A DNA stretch of 64,000 bases from an uncultured Chloroflexia bacterium (GTDB taxonomy: Bacteria > Chloroflexota > Dehalococcoidia > DSTF01 > JACRBR01), in the NCBI GenBank assembly GCA_963743185.1, contig CAVUOT010000006.1, positions 370,107 to 434,106 of the forward strand, in the 5' to 3' direction. The position numbers and the translations under genes are program-made. The notes below the pieces were generated by a model. That model saw nothing but the letters and a program-made list of their open reading frames with translations, did not search any database and was not told the origin of the DNA. Positions 19,730 through 36,672 of the stretch are shown one piece after another. Position 1 is the first letter of the stretch. Each line of letters starts with the position of its first letter.

Positions 19730-19747
19730 TAGCGTAGAAATTCACAA
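19730..19747 (+). promoter_or_regulatory. Possible Rex operator upstream of nuoA
   Basis: TAGCGTA-gaaa-TTCACAA versus consensus TTGTGAA-N4-TTCACAA; just 3' of a TGaTAGGAT extended -10 (hexamer 19713-19718). Confidence 0.4.
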
Positions 19748-19772: not shown

Positions 19773-20144
19773 TTGATCGAGCAGTTTGGACGGGGCGGAT
19801 TCCTCCTTGTCTTCGCCGTCATCTTCCCGCTCACCCCTGTCCTCGCGTCGGTCGCGCTCGGCGTCTTCAAGATCCGCCCCAAAGCACCTGACCCCATCAA
19901 GGAGTCCATCTACGAATGCGGGATGGTGCCGATAGGGGACGCCCACGTCCGCTACAACGTCCGCTACTACCTCTTCGGCCTGCTCTTCGTCGTGTTCGAT
20001 GTCGAAGCCGTGTTCCTCTATCCGTGGGCTGTCGCCTATCGCCATCTCGGCGTGTACGCCTTCGTCGAGGCGATGATCTTCATCGCGATCCTCGCCGTCG
20101 GTTTCGCCTACGCCTGGCGCAAGCGCGCACTGGAGTGGATCTAG
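19773..20144 (+). CDS. nuoA: Complex I subunit A
   Basis: YECG, YYLFGLLFVVFDVE.VFLYPWA and ALEW. Confidence 0.95.
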   Translation: MIEQFGRGGFLLVFAVIFPLTPVLASVALGVFKIRPKAPDPIKESIYECGMVPIGDAHVRYNVRYYLFGLLFVVFDVEAVFLYPWAVAYRHLGVYAFVEAMIFIAILAVGFAYAWRKRALEWI

Positions 20145-20695
20145 TGCCGCACGCCGTCACGCTCACGCTGCCCGGACCGCAGGTCGCCGACCGCATCCGC
20201 GGCGCGCTGCCGGCGGCCCTGCGCGAAGTCGCGGAAGGCTACGTCGTGCTCGAACCGGCGAGCGCGCTCGACGCGATGCGTCTGATCCGCGACGACGAGC
20301 AGCTCGACGGCAAGTTCCTCGTCCAGATGTGCAGCGTGGACATGATCTCGCGCATCGACGTCGTGTATCACTTCGCATCGCTCGCGCAGAACCACATCTT
20401 CGAGGTGAAGGTACCGGCCGACCACGAGCACCCCGAGGTGCCGTCGATCAGCCCGCTCTGGCGCGGGGCGATCCTGCAGGAGCGGGAGATCTACGACCTG
20501 ATGGGCGTGAAGTTCCCCGGACATCCGGAGCTGAAGCGCATCTTCCTCTGGGAATCGTTTCCCGGGCACCCGCTGCGCAAGGATTTCATGTCGATGCCCG
20601 GCGGCCGGAAGTCAGGGCTTAGCCAGTTCCCGAAGCAAGTCGTCGGACAGACGGGGCAGGAGTTCCGTCCGCGCGCTCCCGGTACGGGTGAGTAG
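20144..20695 (+). CDS. nuoC: Complex I subunit C
   Basis: EREIYDLMGVKFPGHP and GHPLRKDF; GTG start overlaps the nuoA TAG. Confidence 0.92.
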   Translation: MPHAVTLTLPGPQVADRIRGALPAALREVAEGYVVLEPASALDAMRLIRDDEQLDGKFLVQMCSVDMISRIDVVYHFASLAQNHIFEVKVPADHEHPEVPSISPLWRGAILQEREIYDLMGVKFPGHPELKRIFLWESFPGHPLRKDFMSMPGGRKSGLSQFPKQVVGQTGQEFRPRAPGTGE

Positions 20696-20716
20696 CCGCA
20701 GCATCTAAGAATGCTC

Positions 20717-20757
20717 CTCCCCTCGCCCCCTGTGGGAGAGGGGCCGGGGGTGAGGGG
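20717..20757. repeat. REP-like palindromic element
   Basis: CTCCCCTCGCCCCCTGTGGGAGAGGGGCCGGGGGTGAGGGG, an imperfect palindrome between nuoC and nuoD. Confidence 0.6.
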
Positions 20758-20763
20758 ACGCAG

Positions 20764-21870
20764 TTGCCGATCAAGTCAGAGCCGGTCGAAGTCAATATCG
20801 GGCCGCAGCACCCGAGCACGCACGGCGTGTTCCGCATGGTCGCGAAGATCGACGGCGAACGTATCGTCGACGTGAAGATGGTCGTCGGCTACCTGCACCG
20901 CAGCATGGAGAAGCTCGCGGAAGAACGCACGTTCACGCAGAACATCCCGTTCACGGACCGCATGGACTACCTGGCGGCGATGTCCGGCAACCTCGGCTAC
21001 TGCCTCTCGGTCGAGAAGCTCTCCGGCATCGAAGCGCCAGAGCGGGCGCAGTACCTTCGCGTTATCTTCGCCGAACTCCAGCGCGTCGCCAGCCACCTCA
21101 TGGCCACCGGCACGTTCATCAACGATTGCGGCGCCTGGCAAACGCCGGTCATGTACTGCTTGCGTGACCGCGAGAAGGTGCTCGACCTCTTCGAGATGAC
21201 CTGCGGCGCGCGGCTCACGACGAACTACATGCGCATCGGCGGCGTCGCCTTCGACGTGCCCGATGAGTTCCTGCCCGCGCTCGACCGTCTCGTCAACGAC
21301 GATCTGCCGTTCCGCTTCGAGGAGTACGACGACCTTCTCGTGGGTAACGAGATCATCATGATGCGGGCGCGCGACGTCGGCGTCGTGACGCCGGAGATGG
21401 CGATCAACGCCTCGCTCAGCGGCCCGCTCCTGCGCAGCGCGGGCATCGCCTGGGACCTGCGCAAGGCCGACCCGTATTGCGTCTACGACCGCATGACGTT
21501 CGACATTCCCGTCGGTTACAACGGCGATGCGTACGATCGCATGACCATCCGAATCGAGGAGATGAAGCAGAGCCTGCGCATCATCCGCCAGGCCATGCGC
21601 GACCTGCCGGGCGGCCCGCACAAGACCGACGTACCGCTGGCGATCCGCCCACCTGCCGGCGAGGCGTACTCGCGCGTCGAGTCGCCGAAGGGGGAGCTTG
21701 GCTTCTATGTCGTCAGTGACGGCGGTCCGGCGCCGTACCGCTGGCACGTCCGCTCACCATCGCTGATCAACCTCAGCGTCCTGCGGGAGATGACGGTCGG
21801 CAAGAGTATCGCGGACGCAGTCGTGACGCTCGGCAGCATCGACATCAACGTCGGGGAGGTCGACCGATGA
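20764..21870 (+). CDS. nuoD: Complex I subunit D
   Basis: GPQHPSTHGV, GYLHR, DRMDY, ESPKGE and GEVDR. Confidence 0.96.
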   Translation: MPIKSEPVEVNIGPQHPSTHGVFRMVAKIDGERIVDVKMVVGYLHRSMEKLAEERTFTQNIPFTDRMDYLAAMSGNLGYCLSVEKLSGIEAPERAQYLRVIFAELQRVASHLMATGTFINDCGAWQTPVMYCLRDREKVLDLFEMTCGARLTTNYMRIGGVAFDVPDEFLPALDRLVNDDLPFRFEEYDDLLVGNEIIMMRARDVGVVTPEMAINASLSGPLLRSAGIAWDLRKADPYCVYDRMTFDIPVGYNGDAYDRMTIRIEEMKQSLRIIRQAMRDLPGGPHKTDVPLAIRPPAGEAYSRVESPKGELGFYVVSDGGPAPYRWHVRSPSLINLSVLREMTVGKSIADAVVTLGSIDINVGEVDR

Positions 21871-23151
21871 CGCTGCTCTCGCTGCTGACGATCGTCACCG
21901 ACAACTGGTGGGACATCCGCGACCTTTCGAACCTCAGCGGCGCCATCCTCGACCTCATCGACGACGCGGGCGGTCCGGCGTGGCTCATTTACGTCGTCTC
22001 GGCGCTGCTCGGCGCGCTCGGTATCGTCGCGTTCATCGGCGCTGTCGCCGTCATCAACATCTGGGTCGAGCGGCGTGTGGTCGGCCGCATGCAGTCGCGT
22101 CTCGGCCCGAACCGCCTCGGCCCCTTCGGCCTGCTGCAGCCCGTCGCGGACGCGATCAAGCTCATGCAGAAGGAAGTGCTGCAGCCGAAGACCGCCTCCG
22201 GCGTCATCTTCACGATGGCGCCGATCATGTTCACGGTGCCCGGGCATCGCGCTGATGGCCGTCCTGCCGTGGGGGCGCAACATGCTGCTCGCCAACCTGG
22301 ATGTCGGCATGCTCTACATCCTCGGCATGTCGTCGCTCGCCGCGCTTGCCGTCTTCATGGCCGGCTACAGCTCGAACAACAAGTACGCGCTCTTCGGCTC
22401 GATGCGCGTCATCGCCATGCTCGTCAGCTACGAGATCCCGATCGTGCTGTCGCTGCTCGGCATCGTCCTCTTCACCGGCACGATGAATCCGCAGGGCATC
22501 GTGCTCTTCCAGGAGCACTACTGGTCGCTGATGATCATGCTCCAGCCGCTCGCCTTCATCATCTACTTCTTCTCCGTCTCGGCGGAGCTGAATCGCACGC
22601 CCGCCGACATCGCCGAGGCCGAGTCCGAGATCGTCGGCGGCTACCACACCGAGTACTCCGGCATGAAGTTCGGCCTCTTCTACGCGGCCGAGCTGATCAA
22701 CGCCGTCTCGGTCTCGGCCATCATCTCGACGCTCTTCCTCGGCGGCTGGTGGGCCTACAAGCTCGACGAGATCGTCCCAGGCTGGATGATCTACATCGGC
22801 AAGATCTACACCGTCTACTTCCTCTTCGTCTGGACGCGTGGCACGCTGCCGCGGTTCCGCATCGACCAGCTCCTCGCGTTCGCGTGGAAGTGGCTGACGC
22901 CGATGGCGATCCTCAACATCGTCATGGTGTCTGCCGAGGTGACGATCTGGGAGGAGAGCGGCGTCAGCGCCGGCCTCCTGCTGCCGGTCTACATGGCGGT
23001 CAACACCGCGTTCGCCGGCGGCATCATCTTCGCCTTCGTCCGCCTGCTGGCGCCGAAGTTCGAGCGCTTCCCGACGCAGCTACGCTTCTACTCGAACATC
23101 GACGTGCCTTCGCTGCCAGCGGTGGCGCCAGAAGCGAAGGTGATCGCGTGA
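21867..23151 (+). CDS. nuoH: Complex I subunit H, frameshift near 22245
   Basis: ERR..GRMQSRLGPNR.GPFGLLQP.ADAIK, then AELNRTP.D..EAESE..GYHTEYSG and LPRFRIDQL. Confidence 0.95.
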
Positions 23152-23657
23152 TCGAAGACACGGGCATCGTGATCGCGTTCTGGGTGCTCGCCATCACGAC
23201 GATCGGTTGCGCGCTGATGGTCGCCGCGGTCCGTGAGTTGCTCCAGGCGGTGCTGTTCCTCGCGCTGGCGTTCGTCGGTGTTGCGGGCATCTACATCGTG
23301 CTCTCGGCCGACTTCGTCGCGGTCGTCCAGGTGCTGATCTACGCCGGCGCCATCGCCGTGCTCATGACCTTCGCCGTCATGCTCACGCCGGCTGCCGACC
23401 GCAAGAACTCCGAGACGGCGTTCCAGGGCCCCGCGGCGATCCTGGCAGGTCTCGTGCTCGCCGTCATCGTGTTCGTCATCTACGACACCGACTGGAAGAT
23501 CTCCGGCCGCGCCGCCTTCCCCGCCACCGCTGCGTCGCTGGGCGAAGCATTCCTCAAGCCGTACGTCGTGCCGTTCGAGGTGGCGTCGGTGCTGCTGATG
23601 ACCGCGATGATCGGCGCGATCGTTCTCACGAAGGAAGAGGAGGGCGAAGATGCCTGA
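23148..23657 (+). CDS. nuoJ: Complex I subunit J
   Basis: QVLIYAGAIAVL..F and PFEVASVLL; GTG start overlaps the nuoH TGA. Confidence 0.93.
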   Translation: MIEDTGIVIAFWVLAITTIGCALMVAAVRELLQAVLFLALAFVGVAGIYIVLSADFVAVVQVLIYAGAIAVLMTFAVMLTPAADRKNSETAFQGPAAILAGLVLAVIVFVIYDTDWKISGRAAFPATAASLGEAFLKPYVVPFEVASVLLMTAMIGAIVLTKEEEGEDA

Positions 23658-23983
23658 GTTGCTGCTCGCCGCGGTGAAGCTCGAGCAGGTGCTCCTCGTC
23701 GGGCGCGATCCTGTTCGCGATCGGTCTCTATCTCGCGCTGTCCAAGCGCAACGCCATCGGCATCCTGATGGGCGTCGAGCTGATGCTCAACGCGGTCAAC
23801 GTCACGCTGCTCGCGTTCTCGCGCTTCGTCGTCTCGCCGCGTCCGCTCGATGGCCAGGTCTTCGCGGTCTTCGTGATTACCGTCGCCGCGGCGGAGGCCG
23901 CCGTAGCACTCGCGCTGGCCGTGGCTGTCTACAAGCATCGGGAAACAGTAAACATCGACGAAATAGACATGCTGAAGTGGTGA
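23650..23983 (+). CDS. nuoK: Complex I subunit K, frameshift near 23702
   Basis: [23 protein letters not shown] and LKW end. Confidence 0.93.
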
Positions 23984-24013
23984 TCTGGTGACGACAGGAG
24001 ACCGAAGCGGACA

Positions 24014-24205
24014 ATGTGGTCCAAGCTGATCGATGTGAAGAACGGGTACGCCGCCGAGGTATGGAAGGAACTCTTCGACGCCGAGGGCGTGTCGAACCGC
24101 GTCGTCCCGCCGCTCACAAGCGATGCGCCGATGTCACAGCCGCGCGAGATCTGGGTGCCCGACAGCAAGACGCACGTCGCGCAGGAAATCATGCGGAAGA
24201 TCTAA
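24014..24205 (+). CDS. Small DUF2007-like protein inside the nuo operon
   Basis: 63 aa, AEVWKELFDAEGV...EIWVP; AGGAG upstream. Confidence 0.65.
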   Translation: MWSKLIDVKNGYAAEVWKELFDAEGVSNRVVPPLTSDAPMSQPREIWVPDSKTHVAQEIMRKI

Positions 24206-24213
24206 CGAACACC

Positions 24214-24239
24214 GTGGGCGCGGCCACACGTGGCCGCCC
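24214..24239 (+). repeat. GTGG-type REP palindrome
   Basis: GTGGGCGCGGCCACACGTGGCCGCCC. Confidence 0.5.
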
Positions 24240-24257
24240 GGTAAGGCGAAGATGACC

Positions 24258-24285
24258 CACCAATCACCAATCACCAGTCACCAGG
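24258..24285. repeat. Heptamer tandem repeat, 4 units
   Basis: CACCAAT CACCAAT CACCAGT CACCAGG upstream of nuoL. Confidence 0.75.
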
Positions 24286-24297
24286 AGACCACCTAGC

Positions 24298-26271
24298 GTG
24301 TTCCTGCCGACCGTTCCCGAGGGTGTAGTCTGGGCGATCCTGCTTCTGCCTATCGCCTCGCTCCTCGTCACCGCGTCCGTCACGAGGCCCTACCCGAAGA
24401 TCTCGGGCTACGTGACGATCGCGGCGATCGGTACCGCGTTCCTCTTCGCCCTCTGGACGCTCGATAGCGTCATCGAGAGCGACGGGCACGCGCTCGCGTT
24501 CGGCTCCTACCACTGGCTGAAGGTCAGCACGGACAACCCGGTCCTGCAGCAGCTCGGCGGCCCGAACCTCAGCATCGACCTGGCGCTGCGGATCGACGGG
24601 CTGAGCGCGATCATGCTCGTCGTCGTCACCGCGGTCTCGCTGCTCGTGCAGATCTACTCGCAGGGCTACATGGAAGGCGACGGCGGCTACTCGCGGTACT
24701 TCGCCTACATGTCGCTGTTCACCGCCGCAATGCTCGGCCTGCTGATGATGGACAGCATCCTGATGGTGTACGTGTTCTGGGAGCTTGTCGGCCTCGGCTC
24801 GTACCTGCTCATCGGTTTCTGGTTCCACAAGAAGTCCGCCGCCGACGCCGCGAAGAAGGCGTTCCTGACGACGCGCCTCGGCGATATCGGCTTCCTGCTT
24901 GCGGTCCTGCTGATCTGGACGAAGACCAACACGTTCAACATCCCGCTGATCCAGGAGATGGCGCAGAACGGAAAGATCACCGACACCGTACTCACGCTCT
25001 TCGCGCTCGGCATCTTCGCCGGTGCGGTCGGCAAGTCCGCGCAGTTCCCGCTGCACGTCTGGCTGCCCGACGCGATGGAGGGCCCGACGCCCGTCTCGGC
25101 GCTGATCCACGCCGCCACGATGGTCGCCGCCGGTGTGTATCTGGTGGCGCGCATGTACCCCGTCTTCCAGATGTCCGACGAGGCGCTGAAGACCGTCGCC
25201 TACGTCGGCGGCTTTACGGCGATATTCGCCGCGTCGATCGGTATCGTCGTCACTGACATCAAGCGTGTGCTCGCGTACTCAACGATCAGCCAACTCGGCT
25301 ACATGATGCTCGCGCTCGGCACGGGCGGGTACATCGCCGCGATCTTCCACCTGTTCACGCACGCGTTCTTCAAGGCGCTGCTCTTCCTCGGCTCGGGCTC
25401 GGTCAACCACGCGACCGGGACGTTCGACATGCGGAAGATGGGCGGTCTGAAGCAGTACATGCCGATCACCTACGCGACGTTTGTCGTCGGCTCGTTGAGC
25501 CTCGCCGGCATCGTGCCGTTCGCCGGCTTCTGGTCGAAGGACGAGATCCTTGGCTCGGCGTGGCAGGACGACAAGATCCTCTGGGCCGTCGCCATGGCTG
25601 TCGTGTTCATGACCGCGTTCTACTCGTTTCGCGCGATCTTCCTCACGTTCCACGGCGACTACAAGGGCGGGGAGCCTCCCGAGCATGGCGTCCACGACGC
25701 GCACGCCGGCAAGCCGCACGAGTCGCCGCTCGTCATGGCGCTGCCGCTCCTCATCCTCGCCGTCCCGGCCACGTTGGCGGGCTTCGTGAACTTCCCGACG
25801 CACGGCACCGAGGCGCTCGCGCACCTGCTGGAAGGCGCGCTGCCGGAGTCGTCCGCCGCGGCGCTGCATCACGAGAGCTTCAACTGGGGCATCGCCATCT
25901 CGTCGTCGGCGCTCGCGTTCGCCGGCATCGGCCTGGCCTACGTTGTCTACCAGGCGAAGGCAATCTCGTCAGAATCGTTGCAGAAGGTGTGGGGGCCCGT
26001 GCACACGCTCGTCGCGCGCAAGTACTACATGGACGAACTGTACGAGAACCTGATCGTCAAGGAAGGCCTCTACAACATCGTCACGCGCGCCGGCCAGTGG
26101 GTCGACACGAACATCATCGACGGCGCGGTCAATGGCGCGGCGACCGTGGCGCGGCGGACCGGCGATGGCCTGCGCTGGGTGCAATCGGGATCTGTGCAGG
26201 CATACGGCACCGTAGGATTCGCCGGGCTCGTCGCAGCTTCATTCCTCATGCTCGTGTTACTGGAGAGATAG
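24298..26271 (+). CDS. nuoL: Complex I subunit L
   Basis: GKSAQFPLHVWLPDAMEGPTPVSALIHAATMV and HAFFKALLFLGSG. Confidence 0.97.
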   Translation: MFLPTVPEGVVWAILLLPIASLLVTASVTRPYPKISGYVTIAAIGTAFLFALWTLDSVIESDGHALAFGSYHWLKVSTDNPVLQQLGGPNLSIDLALRIDGLSAIMLVVVTAVSLLVQIYSQGYMEGDGGYSRYFAYMSLFTAAMLGLLMMDSILMVYVFWELVGLGSYLLIGFWFHKKSAADAAKKAFLTTRLGDIGFLLAVLLIWTKTNTFNIPLIQEMAQNGKITDTVLTLFALGIFAGAVGKSAQFPLHVWLPDAMEGPTPVSALIHAATMVAAGVYLVARMYPVFQMSDEALKTVAYVGGFTAIFAASIGIVVTDIKRVLAYSTISQLGYMMLALGTGGYIAAIFHLFTHAFFKALLFLGSGSVNHATGTFDMRKMGGLKQYMPITYATFVVGSLSLAGIVPFAGFWSKDEILGSAWQDDKILWAVAMAVVFMTAFYSFRAIFLTFHGDYKGGEPPEHGVHDAHAGKPHESPLVMALPLLILAVPATLAGFVNFPTHGTEALAHLLEGALPESSAAALHHESFNWGIAISSSALAFAGIGLAYVVYQAKAISSESLQKVWGPVHTLVARKYYMDELYENLIVKEGLYNIVTRAGQWVDTNIIDGAVNGAATVARRTGDGLRWVQSGSVQAYGTVGFAGLVAASFLMLVLLER

Positions 26272-26274
26272 GCG

Positions 26275-27774
26275 ATGAACGGACTGCTGGTCTTCACCGT
26301 CTTCTTCCCGGCTGTCGCGGCGGGCGTCGTCATGCTCACCGTCCCTCGCGAGAGCGAGAACCAGGCGAAGTGGCTCGCGCTCATGGCCACGCTTACCGCA
26401 TTCGTCGGATCGGTCATTCTGCTCTTCGCCTTTGAGCGGCATCCGGGCGAGGCGGCCGCCAATCCGTTTCAGTTCGAGTCCACCGCTACGTGGATCGACG
26501 CCGCCACGGCCGGCTTCGACGTGCAGTTCCACATGGGCGTCGACGGCCTCGGCATCACGATGGTCCTGCTGACGACGTTCCTCTTCGTCATCGCGACGTT
26601 GATCTCGTTCGGCGTGAAACTCCGCACGAAGGAGTACTTCATCTGGCTGCTCGCGCTCGAGACGGGCGTGCTCGGCGTCTTCACCTCGCTCGACCTGATC
26701 ATGTTCTTCCTGTTCTGGGAGGTCGAGCTGCTGCCGATGTACATGCTGATCTCGGTGTGGGGCAGCGGTCGCAAAGAGTACTCGGCGATGAAGTTCCTGC
26801 TCTACACGATCGCCGGCTCAGCTTTCATGCTCGTCGGCTTCCTGGTGATGGGCTTCAGCGCTGAACCGGTGCACACGTTCGACATGGTGCGCCTGCAGCA
26901 GAGCACGATCGGCTCCGGGCTGCTGCCGCTCTGGATGATCTTCGGCTTCATCTTCATCGCGTTCGCCGTAAAGCTGCCGATGTTCCCGTTCCACACCTGG
27001 CTGCCCGATGCGCACACCGATGCACCGACCGCGGTGTCCGTCATCCTCGCCGGTGTCCTGCTGAAGATGGGCGGCTACGGCATCCTGCGCATCCTTGTGA
27101 CGCTCATGCCGAAGACCACGAAGGACTACGGCGTCTGGCTCGCGACGCTCGCCGCCATCAGCGTCATCTACGGCGCGATCCTCACGATCCGCCAGAAGGA
27201 CCTGAAGCGCCTCGTGGCATACTCGTCCGTGAGCCACATGGGGTACGTGCTGCTAGGCATCTCCGCGCTCGGCCACGTCAGTCTGACCGGCGCCGCGCTC
27301 CAAATGTTCACCCACGGCACGATCACGGGGCTGCTGTTCGTGATGGTGGGCATCATCTACGACCGCGCGCACACGCGCGACATCGATCAACTCAGCGGTC
27401 TCGCGCACACGATGCCGCTGGCGGCAACGACGATGGTTATCGCCGGGCTCGCCGCTCTCGGCCTGCCCGCACTCTCCGGCTTCGTTGCCGAACTGCTCGT
27501 GTTCCTGGGCAGCTTCGACACGTACACCGTGCCGACCATCTTCGCTGTCTGCGGCATCCTCCTCTCGGCAGGTTACATAACGTGGATGATCCAGCGCGTG
27601 TTCTTCGGCCCGAAGAATGAGAAGTGGGCCCATCTTCCCGACGCGAACCACTGGTGGGAGCAGGTGCCGATGGCCGCGCTGGTCATCGTCATCGTCGCCG
27701 TCGGTGTGCGGCCGTCGCTTGTCGTCGACCTGCTTGATACAGGGATGATCAACATCGTGAAGGTGCTCAACTGA
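26275..27774 (+). CDS. nuoM: Complex I subunit M
   Basis: AFAVKLPMFPFHTWLPDAH and LKRLVAYSSVSHMG. Confidence 0.97.
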   Translation: MNGLLVFTVFFPAVAAGVVMLTVPRESENQAKWLALMATLTAFVGSVILLFAFERHPGEAAANPFQFESTATWIDAATAGFDVQFHMGVDGLGITMVLLTTFLFVIATLISFGVKLRTKEYFIWLLALETGVLGVFTSLDLIMFFLFWEVELLPMYMLISVWGSGRKEYSAMKFLLYTIAGSAFMLVGFLVMGFSAEPVHTFDMVRLQQSTIGSGLLPLWMIFGFIFIAFAVKLPMFPFHTWLPDAHTDAPTAVSVILAGVLLKMGGYGILRILVTLMPKTTKDYGVWLATLAAISVIYGAILTIRQKDLKRLVAYSSVSHMGYVLLGISALGHVSLTGAALQMFTHGTITGLLFVMVGIIYDRAHTRDIDQLSGLAHTMPLAATTMVIAGLAALGLPALSGFVAELLVFLGSFDTYTVPTIFAVCGILLSAGYITWMIQRVFFGPKNEKWAHLPDANHWWEQVPMAALVIVIVAVGVRPSLVVDLLDTGMINIVKVLN

Positions 27775-29258
27775 TGATTCCTGACCTGAACAGGCTAGGG
27801 CCGGTGCTCGCGGTGATGGTCACCGCCGGCATCATCATCATCGCCGACCTCATGACGCCGCGCGACAAGAAGCGCGCGCTCGCCGGCATCGCGGTCGGCG
27901 GCCTCGCGGCCTCCGCCGTGTGGCTCGTCGTGCTAATCCTGCGCGATCGCCAGGCGTCGTTTTTCAGCGACACAATGTCGCTGGACAACTTCAGCATCTT
28001 CTTCACGTTCATGTTTATCGGCGTGGCCGGCGCCGTCATCCTGGCCTCGCTCGATTACACGGAGAAGTTCGGCGAGCGGCAGGGCGAATTCTTCGCGCTG
28101 ATCCTCATCGCCACGTCCGGCATGATGCTGCTCTCCGGCGCGCGTGACCTCATCGCGATCTTCGTCGCGCTCGAGCTCACGAGCATCACGCAATTCATCC
28201 TGGCCGGCTACCTGCGCGACGACCGGGGCAGCGAGGCGGCGCTCAAGTACTTGCTGCTGGGCGCGGTCTCGTCCGCGGTCATCCTGTATGGCATGGCGTT
28301 CCTCTTCGGCATCGCGGGTACCACGCACCTCGTCACCACAGATGGCTCGCCCAGCATTGCCAGCACCATAGCCGCGGGCGACGGCGGCATCCGCTCGGCA
28401 CTCATCGTGAGCATGGTGTTCCTGGCGGCCGGGTTCGGCTTCAAGATGGCCATCGTGCCGTTCCAGATGTGGACGCCCGACGTCTACGAGGGCGCGCCGA
28501 CGCCTGTCGCCGCTTTCCTTTCGGTCGGCAGCAAGGCCGCCGCGTTCGCCGTCGTGCTGCGCATCTTCTACCAGGGGTTCGGCCCGCACACGTTCGTCGG
28601 CGACGACTGGAAGATGCTGTTTGCAGTCCTCGCCGCCATCACGATGACCGTCGGCAACGTCATGGCGCTGCGCCAGACGAACATCCGGCGCATGCTGGGC
28701 TACAGCTCGATCGCCCAGGCGGGCAATTTTCTCGTCGGCATGGCCGCGATAGCCAGCACGACCGATGGCACCTCGCAGCTCGGCGCCAGTGGCGTCGTGT
28801 TCTTCCTGGGCACGTACGCGTTTACGAACCTCGGCGCGTTCATCGCCATCCTGGCCATCTCCAACCGCACCAACAGCGATGAGATCTCCAGCTACGCCGG
28901 GATGGGGCGCCGCGCGCCGCTTCTCGCCGTCGTGCTCGCGCTCTGCCTGCTCTCGCTCACCGGACTACCGCCGACGGCGGGGTTCTTCGCGAAGCTCTAC
29001 GTCTTCAACGCCGCGATCCAGGCCGACCTGGTCTGGCTTGTCGTCATCGGCGTGCTGAACACCGTCGCGTCGGCGTTCTACTACATGGGCGTTGTGCGCC
29101 AGATGTACAGTACGACGGCCGAGGGAGAGCCTGATGTCACTGCGCCGCTCGTCACACAGGGCCTGCTCGTCATCGCGGCGGCCGGCGTTGTCGGGATCGG
29201 GCTGTATCCGATCCCTTTGATTGACGCCGCACAGCGCGCGGTCAACGTCTTCGCCTGA
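27774..29258 (+). CDS. nuoN: Complex I subunit N
   Basis: EAALKY, FKMAIVPFQMWTPDVYEGAP and GLPPTAGFFAK. Confidence 0.97.
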   Translation: MIPDLNRLGPVLAVMVTAGIIIIADLMTPRDKKRALAGIAVGGLAASAVWLVVLILRDRQASFFSDTMSLDNFSIFFTFMFIGVAGAVILASLDYTEKFGERQGEFFALILIATSGMMLLSGARDLIAIFVALELTSITQFILAGYLRDDRGSEAALKYLLLGAVSSAVILYGMAFLFGIAGTTHLVTTDGSPSIASTIAAGDGGIRSALIVSMVFLAAGFGFKMAIVPFQMWTPDVYEGAPTPVAAFLSVGSKAAAFAVVLRIFYQGFGPHTFVGDDWKMLFAVLAAITMTVGNVMALRQTNIRRMLGYSSIAQAGNFLVGMAAIASTTDGTSQLGASGVVFFLGTYAFTNLGAFIAILAISNRTNSDEISSYAGMGRRAPLLAVVLALCLLSLTGLPPTAGFFAKLYVFNAAIQADLVWLVVIGVLNTVASAFYYMGVVRQMYSTTAEGEPDVTAPLVTQGLLVIAAAGVVGIGLYPIPLIDAAQRAVNVFA

Positions 29259-29283
29259 ACGCGACGAGGGTAGTGCTGTCGCC

Positions 29284-29934
29284 TTACGGGCGCGGGGGCT
29301 CGCGGCGCGCGATAAACGCGGCCGCTTCGGAGCGGCGCCGCAGGTTCAACTTGCTGAGGATGTTGCTCACGTAGTTCTTGACCGTCTTGTCGCTCAGGTA
29401 GACCTCGTCCGCGATCTCTTTGTTTGTCTTGCCTTCCGCAATCAGCGAGAGGATCTTGTGCTCCTGCTCGGTCAGCGCGTCGAGGGGGTCATCAGCCTTG
29501 CGCTGGCTGGCTGACCGCACGCGGTCCATGACCTTCTGCGTCACGGCGGCGTCCAGCAACGACTCGCCGCGCGCTACCGCGGCGATGGCGTCTGCCAGCG
29601 CCGCTCCGCGCGTTTGCTTCAGCACGTACCCGGCGGCCCCCGCAAGGATCGATGCGAACACGGCGTCGTCGTCCGCGTACGACGTCAGCATGATGACCTT
29701 CGTCTCCGGCCGCTCCTCCCGAATCTCGCGGCATGCCTCGATGCCGCTCCCGTCGGGCAGTCGCACGTCCATCACGATGACGTCGGGCTTGGTCCGCGCC
29801 GCCTCGGCCACCGCCTGTTCCACGGACCCCGCCTGGCCTACCACGTCGAAGCCCTCGCGTCGGCTCAACAACGCCCGGAGGCCCTCTCGCACCACCTCGT
29901 GGTCATCGACGATCAGGATCCGTGTCTTGGCCAT
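29284..29934 (-). CDS. NarL/LuxR response regulator (DevR/DosR-like), no kinase nearby
   Basis: IVDDHEVVR, MDVRLPDGSG and HTH GKTNKEIA..LSDKTVKNYVS. Confidence 0.93.
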   Translation of the reverse strand: MAKTRILIVDDHEVVREGLRALLSRREGFDVVGQAGSVEQAVAEAARTKPDVIVMDVRLPDGSGIEACREIREERPETKVIMLTSYADDDAVFASILAGAAGYVLKQTRGAALADAIAAVARGESLLDAAVTQKVMDRVRSASQRKADDPLDALTEQEHKILSLIAEGKTNKEIADEVYLSDKTVKNYVSNILSKLNLRRRSEAAAFIARREPPRP

Positions 29935-30180
29935 GCGACTCTCCTTCGCCGGTTCGCAGGGTTCCTTCGACGGCGCCGGAGCCGTTCGAAACTTCTTGCT
30001 GAGTGTACCGTGCAAACGGGGCGCACGCTTCGCGACACAAGGCGATTGGGCCGCGGAGGGAGATTGGCACGAGTGGAACGGCCGAAACCCTCCCGGGCGG
30101 CGGTGCTGGAATCTTGGTCGCCACGCCCGCTGACGCTCGCCGGAGCCGCGTCACGGCGATCCGGCGGCCGCCCGCCGACC

Positions 30181-30200
30181 GTCGGGTGCAGACACCCTAA
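30181..30200. promoter_or_regulatory. Dyad resembling a DosR/DevR-type box
   Basis: GTCGGGTGcagaCACCCTAA between the divergent regulator and the surface-protein genes. Confidence 0.3.
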
Positions 30201-30313
30201 AGCCCGCGCGCGGCCGGCCGACCAATACGCATACTGCTTCGGCTTCTGATGAGATGCCGGGCCCGCACGTCCGCCCCGTCAACCGGCGTGCCGCGATCGA
30301 TCGGAGGGGTGTT

Positions 30314-31294
30314 ATGACTCGACTGCTTCGCTCAAGGGTGCTGGCCGTGCTCGTGGCGCTCGCGGTCCTGGCCACGCTGTCCACGCAGAGGCAATCGCCA
30401 GCAAACGCGGCGGGGCTCACCGCCGTAGGCTGGGCCGTCAGCAACTCCCAGACATCCGCGACGGGCATTACCTACACCTGGAACTTCACGCCGGCAACCA
30501 CGGCGACGCTCTCGTCGATCACCATGACGGTGCCCGCGGGCACGACTGGTACGCCGGCCATCGCCGCCAACTGGGGGATCGGCGCCGGCAGCGTCGGTCT
30601 GTCCGGCGCGACCGTTACCTACACGGTCACGGCACCGGCATCGGTGAGCTCGGGTACCCCGATCTACATTGAACTCTCGGGGTTCACGAATACTGGTACG
30701 GCTGGCAGCTACACGAGCGACGTAACCACCGACAATGGAGCCCCCGTTGATACGGGTACCAGTCAATCCGTGACGTTCGGTTCGTCGACGACGGTCGCCC
30801 ATGTCACAGTCGCGAAGTCGCTGACGCTGACGAACGACACACCAGCGTTTCGTTTGCTGATGGATCCTGGCGTCGCCGCGCTCGCGGACCGCAACAAGGA
30901 TGTCACGCTCACCGTGAAGACGAACTCCGGATCAGGCTATTCGCTGGCCGTCCAGGCGGGATTACTCACCAACACCAGCGCCCAGACCATCCCGGTCGCC
31001 TCGAATGGGATCGGAACGGGTGTGGCGTCGGGTGCGTTTGCGGCGAACACCTTCGGGTACTCGATGACCGCGACCGCCGGCAACGCGTCGGGCGTCGCGG
31101 TGCAGGGCGCTGGGCTGGGCGCCGGCGACTATGTCGGCTACACGAGCGGCGGCGAAACCGCGGCTATCGCGACGGGGCCAACCGGCGACGCCGGCGACAC
31201 GATCGTCCTGAACAATCGCGTGAAGATCAACTACGACACGCCCGGTGGCGAGTACACGTCCACCATCACGTACACGGTGGCACCGTCGTACTGA
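30314..31294 (+). CDS. Secreted Thr/Gly-rich beta-sandwich surface subunit (WxL/pilin-like)
   Basis: Signal peptide; VKTNSGSGYSL; C-terminal PGGEYTSTITYTVAPSY strand. Confidence 0.7.
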   Translation: MTRLLRSRVLAVLVALAVLATLSTQRQSPANAAGLTAVGWAVSNSQTSATGITYTWNFTPATTATLSSITMTVPAGTTGTPAIAANWGIGAGSVGLSGATVTYTVTAPASVSSGTPIYIELSGFTNTGTAGSYTSDVTTDNGAPVDTGTSQSVTFGSSTTVAHVTVAKSLTLTNDTPAFRLLMDPGVAALADRNKDVTLTVKTNSGSGYSLAVQAGLLTNTSAQTIPVASNGIGTGVASGAFAANTFGYSMTATAGNASGVAVQGAGLGAGDYVGYTSGGETAAIATGPTGDAGDTIVLNNRVKINYDTPGGEYTSTITYTVAPSY

Positions 31295-31321
31295 CGCACG
31301 AACACGGGAAGGATCCCGGAC

Positions 31322-32251
31322 ATGAAGGTTCTGGCCGTAGCCGTCGCCATCGCGTTCCTCGCCGCAGCCGCGTCGCTGGCTACAGCGAGGGCCGATGGCG
31401 ACGGCATCACGGTATCCGTGTCGCCCGATCCGATCCGGGCGGCGCCCGGCGCGATCGTGCAGATCCCGCTGCGGGTCAGCAACAACGAGACTGACCAGCC
31501 CGTCCACTTCACCATCGCGCAGCGGGCGCTGTCGATGGAGGACGAAGGCCGGATCACCGTACTCGAGCAGGCGGACCCGGCGTTCGCGGCGCTAAACGTC
31601 CCAGGCGACGAGCAAACCCTGGATCCGGGAGCGTATCGGGATTATGACTTCGAGCTCCAGGTGCCGGCGCTCGCACCCGACACATACCTCATCGGACTCC
31701 TCGTCAGCGTTCGCAGCGAGACGGTCGGTGCGGTCAACGTGCAGGGCCAGGTCGCCACGTTCGCAATGCTCGACATCCCCGGCGTGCGCGACCGGCGCCT
31801 GCACGCCGAGTTGCATCTGCCTGGATTCCACCTCGGGTCGTCGACGTCGGGTCAGGCTGTATTGTCGAACGTAGGCGGATCTTCATTCAACGTCTGGGGT
31901 GAGATCGATGCCGGCGGCGGGCAGCACGACCGGGTCGGCAAGACCCTTCTTGCCGCTGGCCGACAGCGTTCGGTGCCCGTCAGTACCAGCGCGACGTGGG
32001 GCCTCGGACGCAAGCGTGTGACACTCAACGTCTACCACAACATCACTGACAGCCAGACCGGCGTTGATACCGTGACCGCAACGGTCTGGCTGATACATCC
32101 GGCGTACATCGCTGAAGGCGTGACGGTCCTCCTAGCGGGCAGTCTCGCCTTCATCGAGTGGTTGCTGCGGCGTCGCCGGACCCGGCGGGAGCGGTACTCC
32201 GCCCCGACGCTCCTACCGCACGACCGGCGCGGTCAGTCGAAGGTCGCGTGA
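31322..32251 (+). CDS. Membrane-anchored two-Ig-domain protein (DUF916/DUF3324 WxL-partner or chaperone-like)
   Basis: Signal peptide, VSVSP...APG...VSN, NVGG, C-terminal TM followed by RRRR. Confidence 0.6.
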   Translation: MKVLAVAVAIAFLAAAASLATARADGDGITVSVSPDPIRAAPGAIVQIPLRVSNNETDQPVHFTIAQRALSMEDEGRITVLEQADPAFAALNVPGDEQTLDPGAYRDYDFELQVPALAPDTYLIGLLVSVRSETVGAVNVQGQVATFAMLDIPGVRDRRLHAELHLPGFHLGSSTSGQAVLSNVGGSSFNVWGEIDAGGGQHDRVGKTLLAAGRQRSVPVSTSATWGLGRKRVTLNVYHNITDSQTGVDTVTATVWLIHPAYIAEGVTVLLAGSLAFIEWLLRRRRTRRERYSAPTLLPHDRRGQSKVA

Positions 32252-32330
32252 GTTACTCCGCGTCCGAAGCCGATCAGCGTCGTGGTGCGGTGCCTCTGGC
32301 GTTGAACCGTGCGTCGCGTGTGGGCAAACG

Positions 32331-32356
32331 GAAAGCGGCCCTTAAGGGCCGTTTTC
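32331..32356. terminator. Bidirectional terminator
   Basis: GAAAGCGGCCC-ttaa-GGGCCGTTTTC between converging units. Confidence 0.75.
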
Positions 32357-32368
32357 GTATCTGCGGAA

Positions 32369-32444
32369 TGGCACGGGTGGAGGGACTCGAACCCCCGACC
32401 GGCGGTTTTGGAGACCGCTGCTCTCCCAACTGAGCTACACCCGT
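32369..32444 (-). tRNA. tRNA-Trp (CCA), encoded CCA end
   Basis: ACGGGTGTAGCTCAGTTGGGAGAGCAGCGGTCTCCAAAACCGCCGGTCGGGGGTTCGAGTCCCTCCACCCGTGCCA, a 76-nt cloverleaf. Confidence 0.97.
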
Positions 32445-32493
32445 GTGCCACCCTCAGTATACGGAGCGATGCCGATCGGCGGAACCCGGGTCG

Positions 32494-33231
32494 CTACCCC
32501 GGCGTGCGGGCGTCAACCACGCGGCGCACCAGGTCCGGGAAGTTGCTGCAGATACTGTCGACACCCGCCACGCACATCTGCTCCATGTCGGCCTCGGCGT
32601 CCACCGTCCACGTCATGAACGTCAATGAACGCCGCTGCCCCTGCCGCACAATCTCCGGCGTCGCGAACGCGTAGTACACGCTCACGCCCTGCGCGTTCAG
32701 TGAAAGCGCGAACCCGAAGAACTCCTGCCAGTCGACCACGCGGCGTCCGTCCGTCAGCAGCGCCGCGGCGAGTCGCGGCTCCACCGCGCGCATCGCGCGC
32801 ACCACCCGTGGATAGAACGAATGCACTTCGCAATCCGCGATGGCATCCGCCGCGCGCACGACGTCCGCCACCTGCGATTCGATGCCCGCCTGCTTCACCT
32901 CGATCTGCAGCAGCGCCTTGCCCTTCGTCAGGTCCAGCACTTCGGTCAGCAGCGGGATCTTCGCGCCGTGAAACTTCGGTGCGAACTGCCTTGCCCCGGC
33001 GTCGAGCGCACGCGCCACATCGAGCGTCATCTCGTGTATGTTGCCGGCGCCGTCGGTGGTTCGGTCCACGGTGTCGTCGTGGATCAATACCACCGCTCCG
33101 TCCGACGTGCAGTGCACGTCGATCTCGATCGCGTCCGCGCCCAGCCGCAGGGCCGCCTCTATCCCCGCGAGCGTATTCTCCGGCGCGTGCCCCTTGCACG
33201 CCGCGTGTGAAGTGACGAGCGGCGATCTCAT
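32494..33231 (-). CDS. Glycerophosphodiester phosphodiesterase family protein
   Basis: APENTL, IEIDV...DG.VVLIHD.TVDRTT and WTVD. Confidence 0.9.
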   Translation of the reverse strand: MRSPLVTSHAACKGHAPENTLAGIEAALRLGADAIEIDVHCTSDGAVVLIHDDTVDRTTDGAGNIHEMTLDVARALDAGARQFAPKFHGAKIPLLTEVLDLTKGKALLQIEVKQAGIESQVADVVRAADAIADCEVHSFYPRVVRAMRAVEPRLAAALLTDGRRVVDWQEFFGFALSLNAQGVSVYYAFATPEIVRQGQRRSLTFMTWTVDAEADMEQMCVAGVDSICSNFPDLVRRVVDARTPG

Positions 33232-35425: not shown

Positions 35426-36672
35426 TGGTGACTCGCACGGACGATGCCGCAACGACAGCTGCGATCGATTGCACACGTCGCGCGCGCCGATTGCGGATAT
35501 CCTCGACCGCGCGCTCGCGGGCGAGCGGCTGACGCCGGACGACGGCTATCGCCTGATCGACGCCGACGCGACGGAGCTCGCGTCGATGATGGCTGCGGCA
35601 TCCGAGCTGCGCGACCGCGGCCACGGACGCGTCGTCACGTATTCGCGCAAGGTCTTCATCCCGCTGACGAACCTCTGCCGTCAGAAGTGCGGCTACTGCA
35701 CCTTCGCGCGCGGTCCGCGCGATCCCATCGCGCACACGATGACGCCGGACGAGGTGCTCGCCGTGGCGCGCGCCGGCGCCCGGCAGGGCTGCAAGGAGGC
35801 GCTGTTCTCGCTCGGCGAGCGGCCGGAGGAGATCTATGAGAACGTGCGCAGCCGACCTCGCGCGCTTCGGCCATGCGACGATGTCGTCGTACCTGCGCGA
35901 GATGGCGGAGCTGGTGCTGCGCGAGACCGGCCTCCAACCGCACATCAACCAGGGCCTGATGGAGCATGACGAGATCGTCTCGCTGCGCGAGGTGAGCGCA
36001 TCGATGGGGATGATGCTCGAGACCGTGTCGCTGCGGCTGCACGAGAAGGGCGGTGCGCACTGGAACTGCCCCGGAAAGATCCCGGAGGAGCGGCTTCGCA
36101 CGATGCGTATCGCCGGCGAAGAGAAGGTGGCGTGGACGACGGGCATCCTCATCGGCATCGGCGAGACGCGTGAAGAGCGGGTCGATTCGCTGTTCGCCAT
36201 CCGCGAACTGCACGACGAGCATCGCCAGATCCAGGAAGTGATCGTGCAGAACTTCCGCGTCAAGGAAGACATCGCCATGCGTCACCGCGACGAGCCGAGC
36301 GTCTTCGAGATGCTGCGGACGATCGCGACCGCGCGGTTGATCCTCGGGCCGCGGATGAACATCCAGGCGCCGCCGAACCTGACGCCCGACGCGCATGGCA
36401 TGTACCTGCTCGCCGGCATCAACGACTGGGGCGGCATCTCGCCCGTCACGAAGGACCACATCAACCCGGAGCGCCCGTGGCCTAACCTGCTCGAACTGAA
36501 AGAGACGTGCGCCGACGCCGGCTTCGAGTTGCGCGAGCGCCTGGGCCTCTACCCCGAGTATGTGCGTGAGGACGCTGGCTACGAAGGCTTCATCTCGGAT
36601 GGCGTGCGGGCACGGATCGAACGCCTCAGCGACACCGAAGGGCTCGTCAAGCGAGAGGAAGAACGATGGTAA
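35425..36672 (+). CDS. cofG: FO synthase subunit CofG, frameshift near 35850 (5' end uncertain)
   Basis: TYSRKVFIPLTNLCRQKCGYCTF, TTGILIGIGE, QAPPNL and GINDWGGISPVT.DH.NPE. Confidence 0.93.

Follow-up and report, generated by a model that had tools for sequence, protein, structure and literature searches.

A lineage-wide, dispersed complex I in Dehalococcoidia: a nuo operon whose iron-sulphur subunits are encoded at other loci

Introduction

Where does a complex I operon obtain its iron-sulphur (Fe-S) wire when every gene for an Fe-S-bearing subunit is missing from it? The question is raised by an operon of the order nuoA-C-D-H-J-K-x-L-M-N in the genome assembly of an uncultured Chloroflexia bacterium (Dehalococcoidia; DSTF01; JACRBR01; GenBank GCA_963743185.1), located within a stretch of 64,000 nucleotides (contig CAVUOT010000006.1, positions 370,107 to 434,106) that we refer to as the window. 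The location of nuoEFG outside the operon and the existence of 11-subunit forms of the enzyme are well known (PMC3144371), and 86% of the genomes that encode complex I have the genes together (PMC4453560). An initial annotation of the window had described the operon as lacking all Fe-S subunits, had proposed a separate, possibly separately regulated module for the Fe-S wire, and had named a neighbouring ferredoxin or reduced coenzyme F420 (F420H2) as candidate electron donors. We find that the feature is real and that it is a lineage-wide, dispersed complex I, not a complex without core subunits. Our preferred reading, to which we assign a probability of about 0.75, is that one NADH:menaquinone complex I is assembled from four Rex-controlled loci.

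The operon in the window

The gene order was borne out by the open reading frame listing together with NCBIfam searches, and extends over positions 19773-29258:

19773..20144, plus strand: nuoA (NCBIfam); its stop overlaps the nuoC start
20144..20695, plus strand: nuoC, directly after nuoA; nuoB absent here
20764..21870, plus strand: nuoD (TIGR01962, 459.7 bits against a cut-off of 459.35); quinone-site His, Tyr and Asp intact
21867..23151, plus strand: nuoH, its frame shifted by one extra base near 22239, probably an assembly error
23148..23657, plus strand: nuoJ, directly after nuoH; nuoI absent here
23650..23983, plus strand: nuoK; the single extra base near 23701 is probably an assembly error
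24014..24205, plus strand: x, a conserved small protein of 63 amino acids, DUF2007-like (below the Pfam cut-off)
24298..26271, plus strand: nuoL, charged proton-path residues kept
26275..27774, plus strand: nuoM, charged proton-path residues kept
27774..29258, plus strand: nuoN, charged proton-path residues kept
19730..19747, no strand: Rex-operator-like 7-4-7 palindrome upstream of nuoA (11/14 matches), a predicted site

The genes overlap at both junctions, the stop of nuoA with the start of nuoC at 20144 and the stop of nuoH with the start of nuoJ at 23148-23151, which leaves no room for nuoB or nuoI; family searches for NuoB, NuoI and NuoF gave no match within the operon. NuoD, NuoL, NuoM and NuoN exceed their NCBIfam cut-offs. 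The NuoD residues that align to His38, Tyr87 and Asp139 of Thermus thermophilus Nqo4, which we take to be quinone-site residues, are all kept, in line with the quinone-site His and Tyr recognised in the initial annotation. Similarly, the conserved Glu, Lys and His motifs of NuoL, NuoM and NuoN, presumably proton-path residues, are identical in alignments to the solved subunits. Gene x sits between nuoK and nuoL in 34 of the 39 loci that have both of these genes, in split and intact operons alike, and is a possible candidate for an accessory subunit or assembly factor. A scan for sigma-70 promoters upstream of nuoA found nothing.

The two frameshifts in nuoH and nuoK, which the initial annotation had missed, raise the question of whether this locus is a misassembly or a decaying, catalytically dead relic. 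The extra bases are absent from relatives, and each is also absent from the contigs of two of four public sequencing runs; hence they are most likely assembly errors. The coupled junctions that the initial annotation regarded as clean are bridged by contigs of close relatives, A/C in three of the four runs and H/J in two; since no public run had half of the window's words, these contigs derive from relatives and not from the source strain. Both junctions recur in dozens of genomes, including genomes assembled as single contigs, and misassembled junctions were rejected on these grounds. With the quinone-site and proton-path residues intact and NuoD 88-96% identical within most of the family, we regard an artefact or a relic as having a negligible probability. 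The assembly itself (G000 in our collection; 3.29 Mb, 84% complete) appears prone to small errors: the F420 biosynthesis gene cofG, confirmed inside the window at about 35637-36618, is split across two frames, and together with the other frameshifts this points to frequent single-base insertions and deletions. The segment 17479-18075 of the window and several other genes also look frameshifted.

Fe-S subunit genes elsewhere in the genome

All 14 core subunit types are encoded in the assembly, spread over four loci. The three loci outside the window are:

G000:C3:131773-132417, minus strand: stand-alone nuoB (NuoB-family search)
C10:298108-298644: nuoI; overlaps at its stop with a nuoG-like gene that starts at 298637
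C2:244436-246987, minus strand: nuoE-nuoF-like pair, in the compositionally typical part of C2

The description of the locus as devoid of Fe-S subunits thus holds for the operon and fails for the genome. The initial annotation would have reduced its own claim had ordinary nuoB and nuoI genes turned up elsewhere; this is largely what we find, and the claim therefore drops from missing core subunits to a dispersed complex with an unusual input module. The notion of the Fe-S wire as a separate module survives, in that nuoB stands alone and nuoI is coupled to a nuoG-like gene, while relatives keep a nuoB-nuoI-nuoG block. The stand-alone NuoB scores 225.9 against TIGR01957 (cut-off 142.7) and contains the four Cys of the tandem-Cys N2 ligands. 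NuoI scores 91.2 against TIGR01971 (cut-off 113), and the eight Cys for clusters N6a and N6b are invariant among the 14 NuoI aligned. Menaquinone genes, recognised from their sequences, and a haem-copper oxidase are present.

Further homologs were encountered in the same assembly, in which the family searches count four NuoB genes, four NuoD loci and three loci for NuoF. At G000:C6:191189-201308 there is a second complete operon, A-B-C-D-H-I-J-K-L-M-N, without E, F and G and without gene x; it could share the single E-F-G module. As a source of E, F and G we rejected a 14-gene, proteobacterial-looking nuo cluster at the end of contig C2, because its foreign tetranucleotide composition makes it probably contaminating. 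The last part of this contig, from about 360 kb to its end at 481,867 (about 120 kb), is lower in G+C and foreign in composition, with tetranucleotide distances of 0.22-0.27 compared with 0.06-0.11 elsewhere, and is probably chimeric or contaminating DNA. Two more clusters were set aside as they fall outside the clades of interest: a group-4-hydrogenase-like one (Hyf/Ehr-type, C10:426407-433867), which includes NuoI- and NuoB-like genes of its own, and one of the formate-dehydrogenase type on C14, which has separate F- and G-like genes.

Distribution across the order, class and phylum

In a sample of 31 genomes of the order, this type of NuoD is present in 29, at 72-100% identity. None of the 29 split-type loci contains nuoB or nuoI, both of which are found in a control locus of the other type; the A-C adjacency is visible in 28 and the H-J adjacency in 26, the remainder ending at locus or contig edges. 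The dispersed genes accompany the operon: among these 29 genomes, 28 have a stand-alone nuoB, 27 have nuoI, with a nuoG-like gene downstream of it in each, and 28 have an E/F locus. Missing pieces fall in genomes that are 61% and 84% complete, and a partial nuoI (G013) is an interruption by a run of N. Two genomes of a single genus (G020 and G024) are without all four pieces.

The same picture extends to the class, for which 151 genomes were sampled and 126 match NuoD at E 1e-125. We checked 67 new loci (27 returned by the search and 40 picked down the ranking), of which 32 are split and 35 intact. A and C are adjacent in all 32 split loci; H and J are visibly adjacent in 23, the other nine ending before J. 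The intact operons have the order A-B-C-D-H-I-J-K-x-L-M-N, encode NuoD proteins that are 52-64% identical, and share gene x; their B and I proteins match the dispersed NuoB and NuoI better than those of the second operon in 34/34 and 33/35 cases, respectively. When the 32 split loci were combined with G000, G010 and G019 to give 35 verified split genomes, stand-alone NuoB was found in all 35, the I-linked type of NuoG in 34 (one match being partial) and a NuoF orthologue in all 35. No genome with an intact operon (0/35) passed the thresholds for stand-alone NuoB or I-linked NuoG.

Among 80 further nuoI loci from the species collection, a nuoG-like gene lies downstream in 78 (76 within 400 bases by the script rule and two by inspection) and the other two end at a contig edge; nuoH or nuoJ is present in none, and in seven a stand-alone-type nuoB lies at most 4 kb upstream. 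A profile of the I-linked NuoG had no match at E 1e-95 in 200 other genomes of the phylum. Records titled Tepidiformaceae, a family that has aerobic members in culture, include the nuoI-nuoG pair.

Origin of the split operon

Phylogenetic analysis places the dispersed genes among those of intact Dehalococcoidia operons. In a quick tree, 51 of 52 stand-alone NuoB sequences fall in a clade that we starred (support 98), among NuoB from intact operons, and 13 NuoB from second operons lie apart on a long, likewise starred branch. This nesting indicates that the dispersed nuoB is orthologous to the in-operon gene and that the split is derived. The other subunits agree: all 30 stand-alone NuoI form one group (91), 38 of 39 split NuoD are in one clade (97, FastTree), and 15 of 16 split rows fall in the starred clade of a combined NuoD and NuoH tree. 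All 25 I-linked NuoG form a single clade (100/100) that groups with NuoG from E-F-G operons (95/95). Orthologous E, F and G genes make up one operon in six loci of genomes that lie outside the split clade or at its base.

It could be argued that the split arm takes its NuoB and NuoI from the second operon, present in most relatives, and that the stand-alone genes serve something else. Four genomes (G003, G017, G021, which is 98% complete, and G025) have only the split type of NuoD and nevertheless keep stand-alone nuoB and nuoI. Moreover, the stand-alone NuoB derives from that of the intact orthologous operons and not from that of the second operon, and five single-contig genomes each encode two NuoD, two NuoB and two NuoI-like proteins (2:2:2), one B and one I being located away from any nuo operon. 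We therefore consider such borrowing very improbable. In two single-contig genomes (G112 and G131) hundreds of kb separate the second NuoI-like gene from the second nuoB and nuoD; the second operon of this family may also have lost nuoI.

The arrangement of the dispersed genes was analysed in 14 fetched loci in which they are linked, 13 of them selected for closeness of B and G. B, I and G are contiguous in five; B and I are adjacent, with G 1.7-10 kb away, in another five; nickel superoxide dismutase genes separate B from I-G in three, and a 4-kb gap is seen in one. Of 55 loci with a stand-alone nuoB, 19 have a gene for cysteine desulfurase no more than 1.5 kb away from it and 9 have sodN or sodX at such a distance; G000 belongs to neither group. 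Neighbours of this kind, cysteine desulfurase by nuoB and superoxide dismutase (nickel or Fe/Mn) in the interval from nuoB to nuoI, were noted across nine loci (L260, L263, L274, L276, L278, L288, L454, L456 and L462).

The ancestor may accordingly be pictured as a nuoABCDHIJK-x-LMN operon with a separate E-F-G operon that came from a module of the Bfu and formate dehydrogenase type. In one clade of Dehalococcoidia, nuoB and nuoI would have moved out of the operon to form a B-I-G block with nuoG, in many cases next to genes for cysteine desulfurase and superoxide dismutase, and nuoB would have drifted away later in the family of G000. The sorting is strict: every Fe-S-bearing subunit has left the operon, and nuoB and nuoI, which were not adjacent, have joined nuoG, their neighbour in the wire. 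This suggests selection on the expression or repair of Fe-S subunits, and the split may serve to match their supply to Fe-S assembly or to oxidative damage.

Rex-type sites upstream of the four loci

When the 7-mers upstream of nuoA were counted without bias, one word stood out, occurring in 48 of the 57 regions against an expectation of 0.9; it is enriched before nuoB too. Combining this half-site with its reverse complement gave matches in all four sets of loci only when the spacer was 4 bases long; exact enumeration of inverted repeats had missed the operator because the sites are degenerate. Sites with at least 10/14 matches precede nuoB in 32/54, nuoI in 31/49 and nuoE in 22/34 loci (1.1, 1.4 and 0.5 expected from shuffling), and nuoA in 47/57 (1.9 expected), this last count being partly circular in that the seed came from the nuoA set, which does not apply to the other three; related loci are also not independent. 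In a leave-one-locus-out test the sites of G000 ranked 27 (A), 5 (B), 33 (I) and 8 (E) among 3.29 million positions.

The palindrome is the published operator of Rex (PMC2883068, PMC5355995), so that the sites are predicted Rex sites, and in Streptomyces avermitilis Rex binds and represses nuoA1-N1 (PMC5355995). A rex gene above the NCBIfam cut-offs is present in G000, and 29 of the 31 genomes sampled from the order encode Rex. Both marks of a Rex regulon, the repressor gene and a 7-4-7 operator in front of the targets, are thus present at the sequence level. As all four loci have the site, the Fe-S module looks co-regulated with the operon, the reverse of the separate regulation envisaged in the initial annotation. 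A Rex-like site was also observed in 12 of 31 intact operons and in none of the six outgroup E-F-G operons.

Other intergenic positions of G000 with high-scoring Rex-like sites are C17:54878, C2:100888, C10:110610 and C6:27180, two of which precede genes resembling glutamate synthase and haem A synthase, as recognised from their N-terminal sequences. These additional sites outline a predicted Rex regulon in this lineage.

The input module

The NuoG-like protein (864 amino acids in the relative G005) has as its best match in the Protein Data Bank (PDB), over its length, FdsA of the NAD-linked Rhodobacter capsulatus formate dehydrogenase FdsABG (6tg9, E 2e-96). However, the catalytic Cys/Sec-His pair of formate dehydrogenase is absent from all 41 I-linked copies. 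The protein contains a 2Fe-2S motif, an N5-type His/Cys segment in duplicate, two motifs of the ferredoxin type and one of the N7 type, and may carry up to six clusters, compared with four in textbook NuoG. Judged from these motifs, it is a catalytically dead relative of formate dehydrogenase with extra cluster sites. One genome (G050; loci L466, G050:C50, about 28273-32700, and L453, G050:C19) encodes both forms, a dead I-linked copy in a B-I-G block and a paralogue with the selenocysteine-His pair in an E-F-G operon, and is possibly a snapshot of the recruitment of NuoG. In a family-level group (G127, G145, G108 and L289), Ser replaces one Cys of the second ferredoxin-type motif.

The NuoF-like protein, of about 630 amino acids, raises an alternative. 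Its best PDB matches are NfnB and HydB (E 1e-146 to 1e-117), followed by Nqo1/NuoF at 1e-91 or weaker, and the same 14 subunits might therefore receive electrons through a confurcating Nuo-Bfu enzyme, a predicted type of complex I (PMC9304861), which would oxidise NADH and reduced ferredoxin together and so obtain the energy for full pumping with menaquinone. By-eye inspection of an orthologue alignment showed that the FMN region and the N3/B1 motif are kept in 50/50 orthologues, the ligands of the B2 site in 49/50 and the second C-terminal CxxCxxC motif, for one [4Fe-4S] cluster, in 48/49; an outgroup orthologue (G037) has both C-terminal clusters. In contrast, the first C-terminal CxxCxxC is found in none of the 49 complete orthologues of the split clade, and the N-terminal cluster motif, present in 17/50, is absent from 33/50, including the family of G000. 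The definition of BfuB calls for FMN and the sites B1-B5, both C-terminal [4Fe-4S] clusters among them (PMC9304861). Sites B2 and B5 can hold zinc (Xiao et al., PMC12018979), and removal of B4 nearly abolished bifurcation in Thermococcus sibiricus NfnABC (PMC12018979). With one C-terminal cluster lost and the bfuABC-like genes located outside the nuo cluster, a confurcating enzyme is unlikely here. The E-F-G module would rather be derived from Bfu, most likely with the role of a plain NADH dehydrogenase. The NuoF of G045 is without the B2-site ligands, and this protein and the NuoG group with Ser for Cys look like a continuing erosion of Bfu-type clusters.

A second alternative, close to the idea of the initial annotation, is an 11- or 12-subunit complex, consisting of A-C-D-H-J-K-L-M-N with B, I and perhaps G, that is fed by ferredoxin, flavodoxin or F420H2, leaving E and F to another enzyme. 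G is indeed coupled to I and apart from E-F, cofG is present, the nucleotide loop of NuoF is altered in the family of G000, and in Campylobacter flavodoxin is known to feed a NuoG-like twelfth subunit (PMC3144371, PMC4453560). Against this, E-F and this family of G form one operon in the six outgroup loci, and E-F co-occurs with the split operon in 28/29 genomes and shares its Rex-like site, so that nuoE, nuoF and nuoG partners, which a complex without the N-module would do without, are all at hand. Neither donor suggested in the initial annotation gained ground. The ferredoxin gene is beside nuoA in only one of nine relatives with at least 1.9 kb of upstream DNA. As to F420H2, the FrhB/FpoF family (PF04432) had no match in G000, which is 84% complete (the search was confined to this assembly as far as the lineage is concerned, and a control was positive in 4 of 14 genomes), and thus the FpoF/FqoF input subunit of an F420H2:quinone oxidoreductase (Fpo/Fqo) was not found. 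We consider a complex fed in this manner improbable.

A model for the dispersed complex and the evidence against it

We favour the reading that the window supplies the membrane arm together with the metal-free NuoC and NuoD, and that the Fe-S subunits would come from the nuoB, nuoI-nuoG and nuoE-nuoF loci, the products assembling into one 14-subunit NADH:menaquinone oxidoreductase. Electrons would pass from NADH to FMN and the B1/N3 cluster in NuoF, through the clusters of NuoG to N6a and N6b in NuoI and N2 in NuoB, and finally to menaquinone, and this flow would drive proton pumping via NuoH, NuoL, NuoM and NuoN. Rex, the sensor of NADH/NAD+, is predicted to release its repression in response to NADH and so to switch on the four loci together, and the site at each piece would keep their expression matched.

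Assembly into one complex is likely, judged from gene context, but several observations weigh against this reading. In G000, NuoI, NuoE, NuoF and NuoG all score below their NCBIfam cut-offs, and nuoH, nuoK, nuoF and nuoG are frameshifted, the four genes being intact in relatives. The glycine-rich nucleotide loop of NuoF differs from that of HydB and NfnB in the family of G000, so that binding of NADH is not certain. Besides the partial circularity of the nuoA count, a strong Rex-like site is also found upstream of the second operon (17 of 24 loci; rank 3 in G000, at C6:191071), and the site therefore marks shared redox control and not, by itself, a partnership of E-F-G with the split arm. Four genomes in 120-380 contigs (G040, G055, G108 and G145) have dispersed B and G without a NuoD match at the threshold. 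Finally, G050 is split and yet falls outside the main split clade in the NuoB, NuoD and combined NuoD and NuoH trees (a single clade for all split rows is not rejected, p-AU 0.42), and may represent a second splitting event or an early branch.

A bolder proposal, which we offer as a doubtful one, is that an aerobic clade of Dehalococcoidia rebuilt complex I as plug-in modules. These would comprise a metal-free membrane arm, a B-I-G wire cassette expressed by Fe-S assembly and superoxide-defence genes to allow its replacement when oxidation has damaged it, and an input of Bfu descent that takes ferredoxin as well as NADH and maybe serves both membrane arms. In this input NuoG would have six clusters, and one cluster for ferredoxin docking would have survived.

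Operon-based annotation of a large group of Dehalococcoidia would call complex I incomplete or without a donor, when all 14 parts are present and seem to be co-regulated. What feeds the 11-subunit complexes of Chloroflexota is a long-standing question to which the result is relevant, and the clade preserves steps in the recruitment of an NADH-input module from a formate dehydrogenase or Bfu ancestor. The bare layout is already in print for Acidobacteria. In the literature covered, to which subscription papers and most supplements did not belong, we found no description of the layout in Dehalococcoidia, of the B-I-G block, of the Rex sites or of the input module; the main text of the Tepidiforma paper (PMC10284905) contains no mention of complex I, nuo or NADH.

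Elsewhere in the window, a tRNA-Trp gene is located at 32369-32444 on the minus strand, about 3 kb downstream of nuoN.

Comparison with known systems

The dispersed enzyme shares with canonical 14-subunit complex I (Nqo1-14 of T. thermophilus, NuoA-N of Escherichia coli) its 14 subunit types and the quinone-site, N2, N6a/N6b and proton-path residues. It differs in that the genes are in four loci, a DUF2007-like gene lies between nuoK and nuoL, NuoG has the doubled His/Cys segment and an extra ferredoxin-type motif, and NuoF is a BfuB-like protein of about 630 amino acids.

The closest parallel in layout is found in Acidobacteria, where the nuoB and nuoI that go with nuoACDHJKLMN operons have separate locus tags (Hausmann et al., 10.1101/197269, PMC6018796). 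The reduced order is identical, and the same loss of Fe-S subunits from the operon is seen, but there one operon per genome usually includes nuoEFG, whereas here E, F and G lie elsewhere, nuoG is the gene to which nuoI is coupled, and the most closely related intact operons are those of Dehalococcoidia. The split in Dehalococcoidia probably arose independently of that in Acidobacteria. The intact 11-gene operon of other Dehalococcoidia is orthologous, but B and I stay inside it, and the orthologous E-F-G genes, where present (six loci), form one separate operon.

With regard to the input module, the Nuo-Bfu/BfuABC enzymes (Schut et al. 2022, PMC9304861) likewise have a NuoF-like subunit with an N-terminal thioredoxin-like domain, a B1 cluster, a B2 site and a C-terminal ferredoxin domain, as well as a partner E and a multi-cluster A/G subunit. 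In the dispersed complex, however, the whole clade has lost one C-terminal cluster and, in many cases, the N-terminal site too; the genes lie outside the nuo operon, and the host has a haem-copper oxidase. FdsABG of R. capsulatus provides the match for the NuoG-like protein in its FdsA subunit, from which the I-linked copies differ by the missing Cys/Sec-His pair. The Rex regulon of S. avermitilis (PMC5355995) has the same 7-4-7 operator upstream of nuo genes and Rex present, but consists in this respect of one operator and one 14-gene operon, whereas here predicted sites precede four pieces and a second operon.

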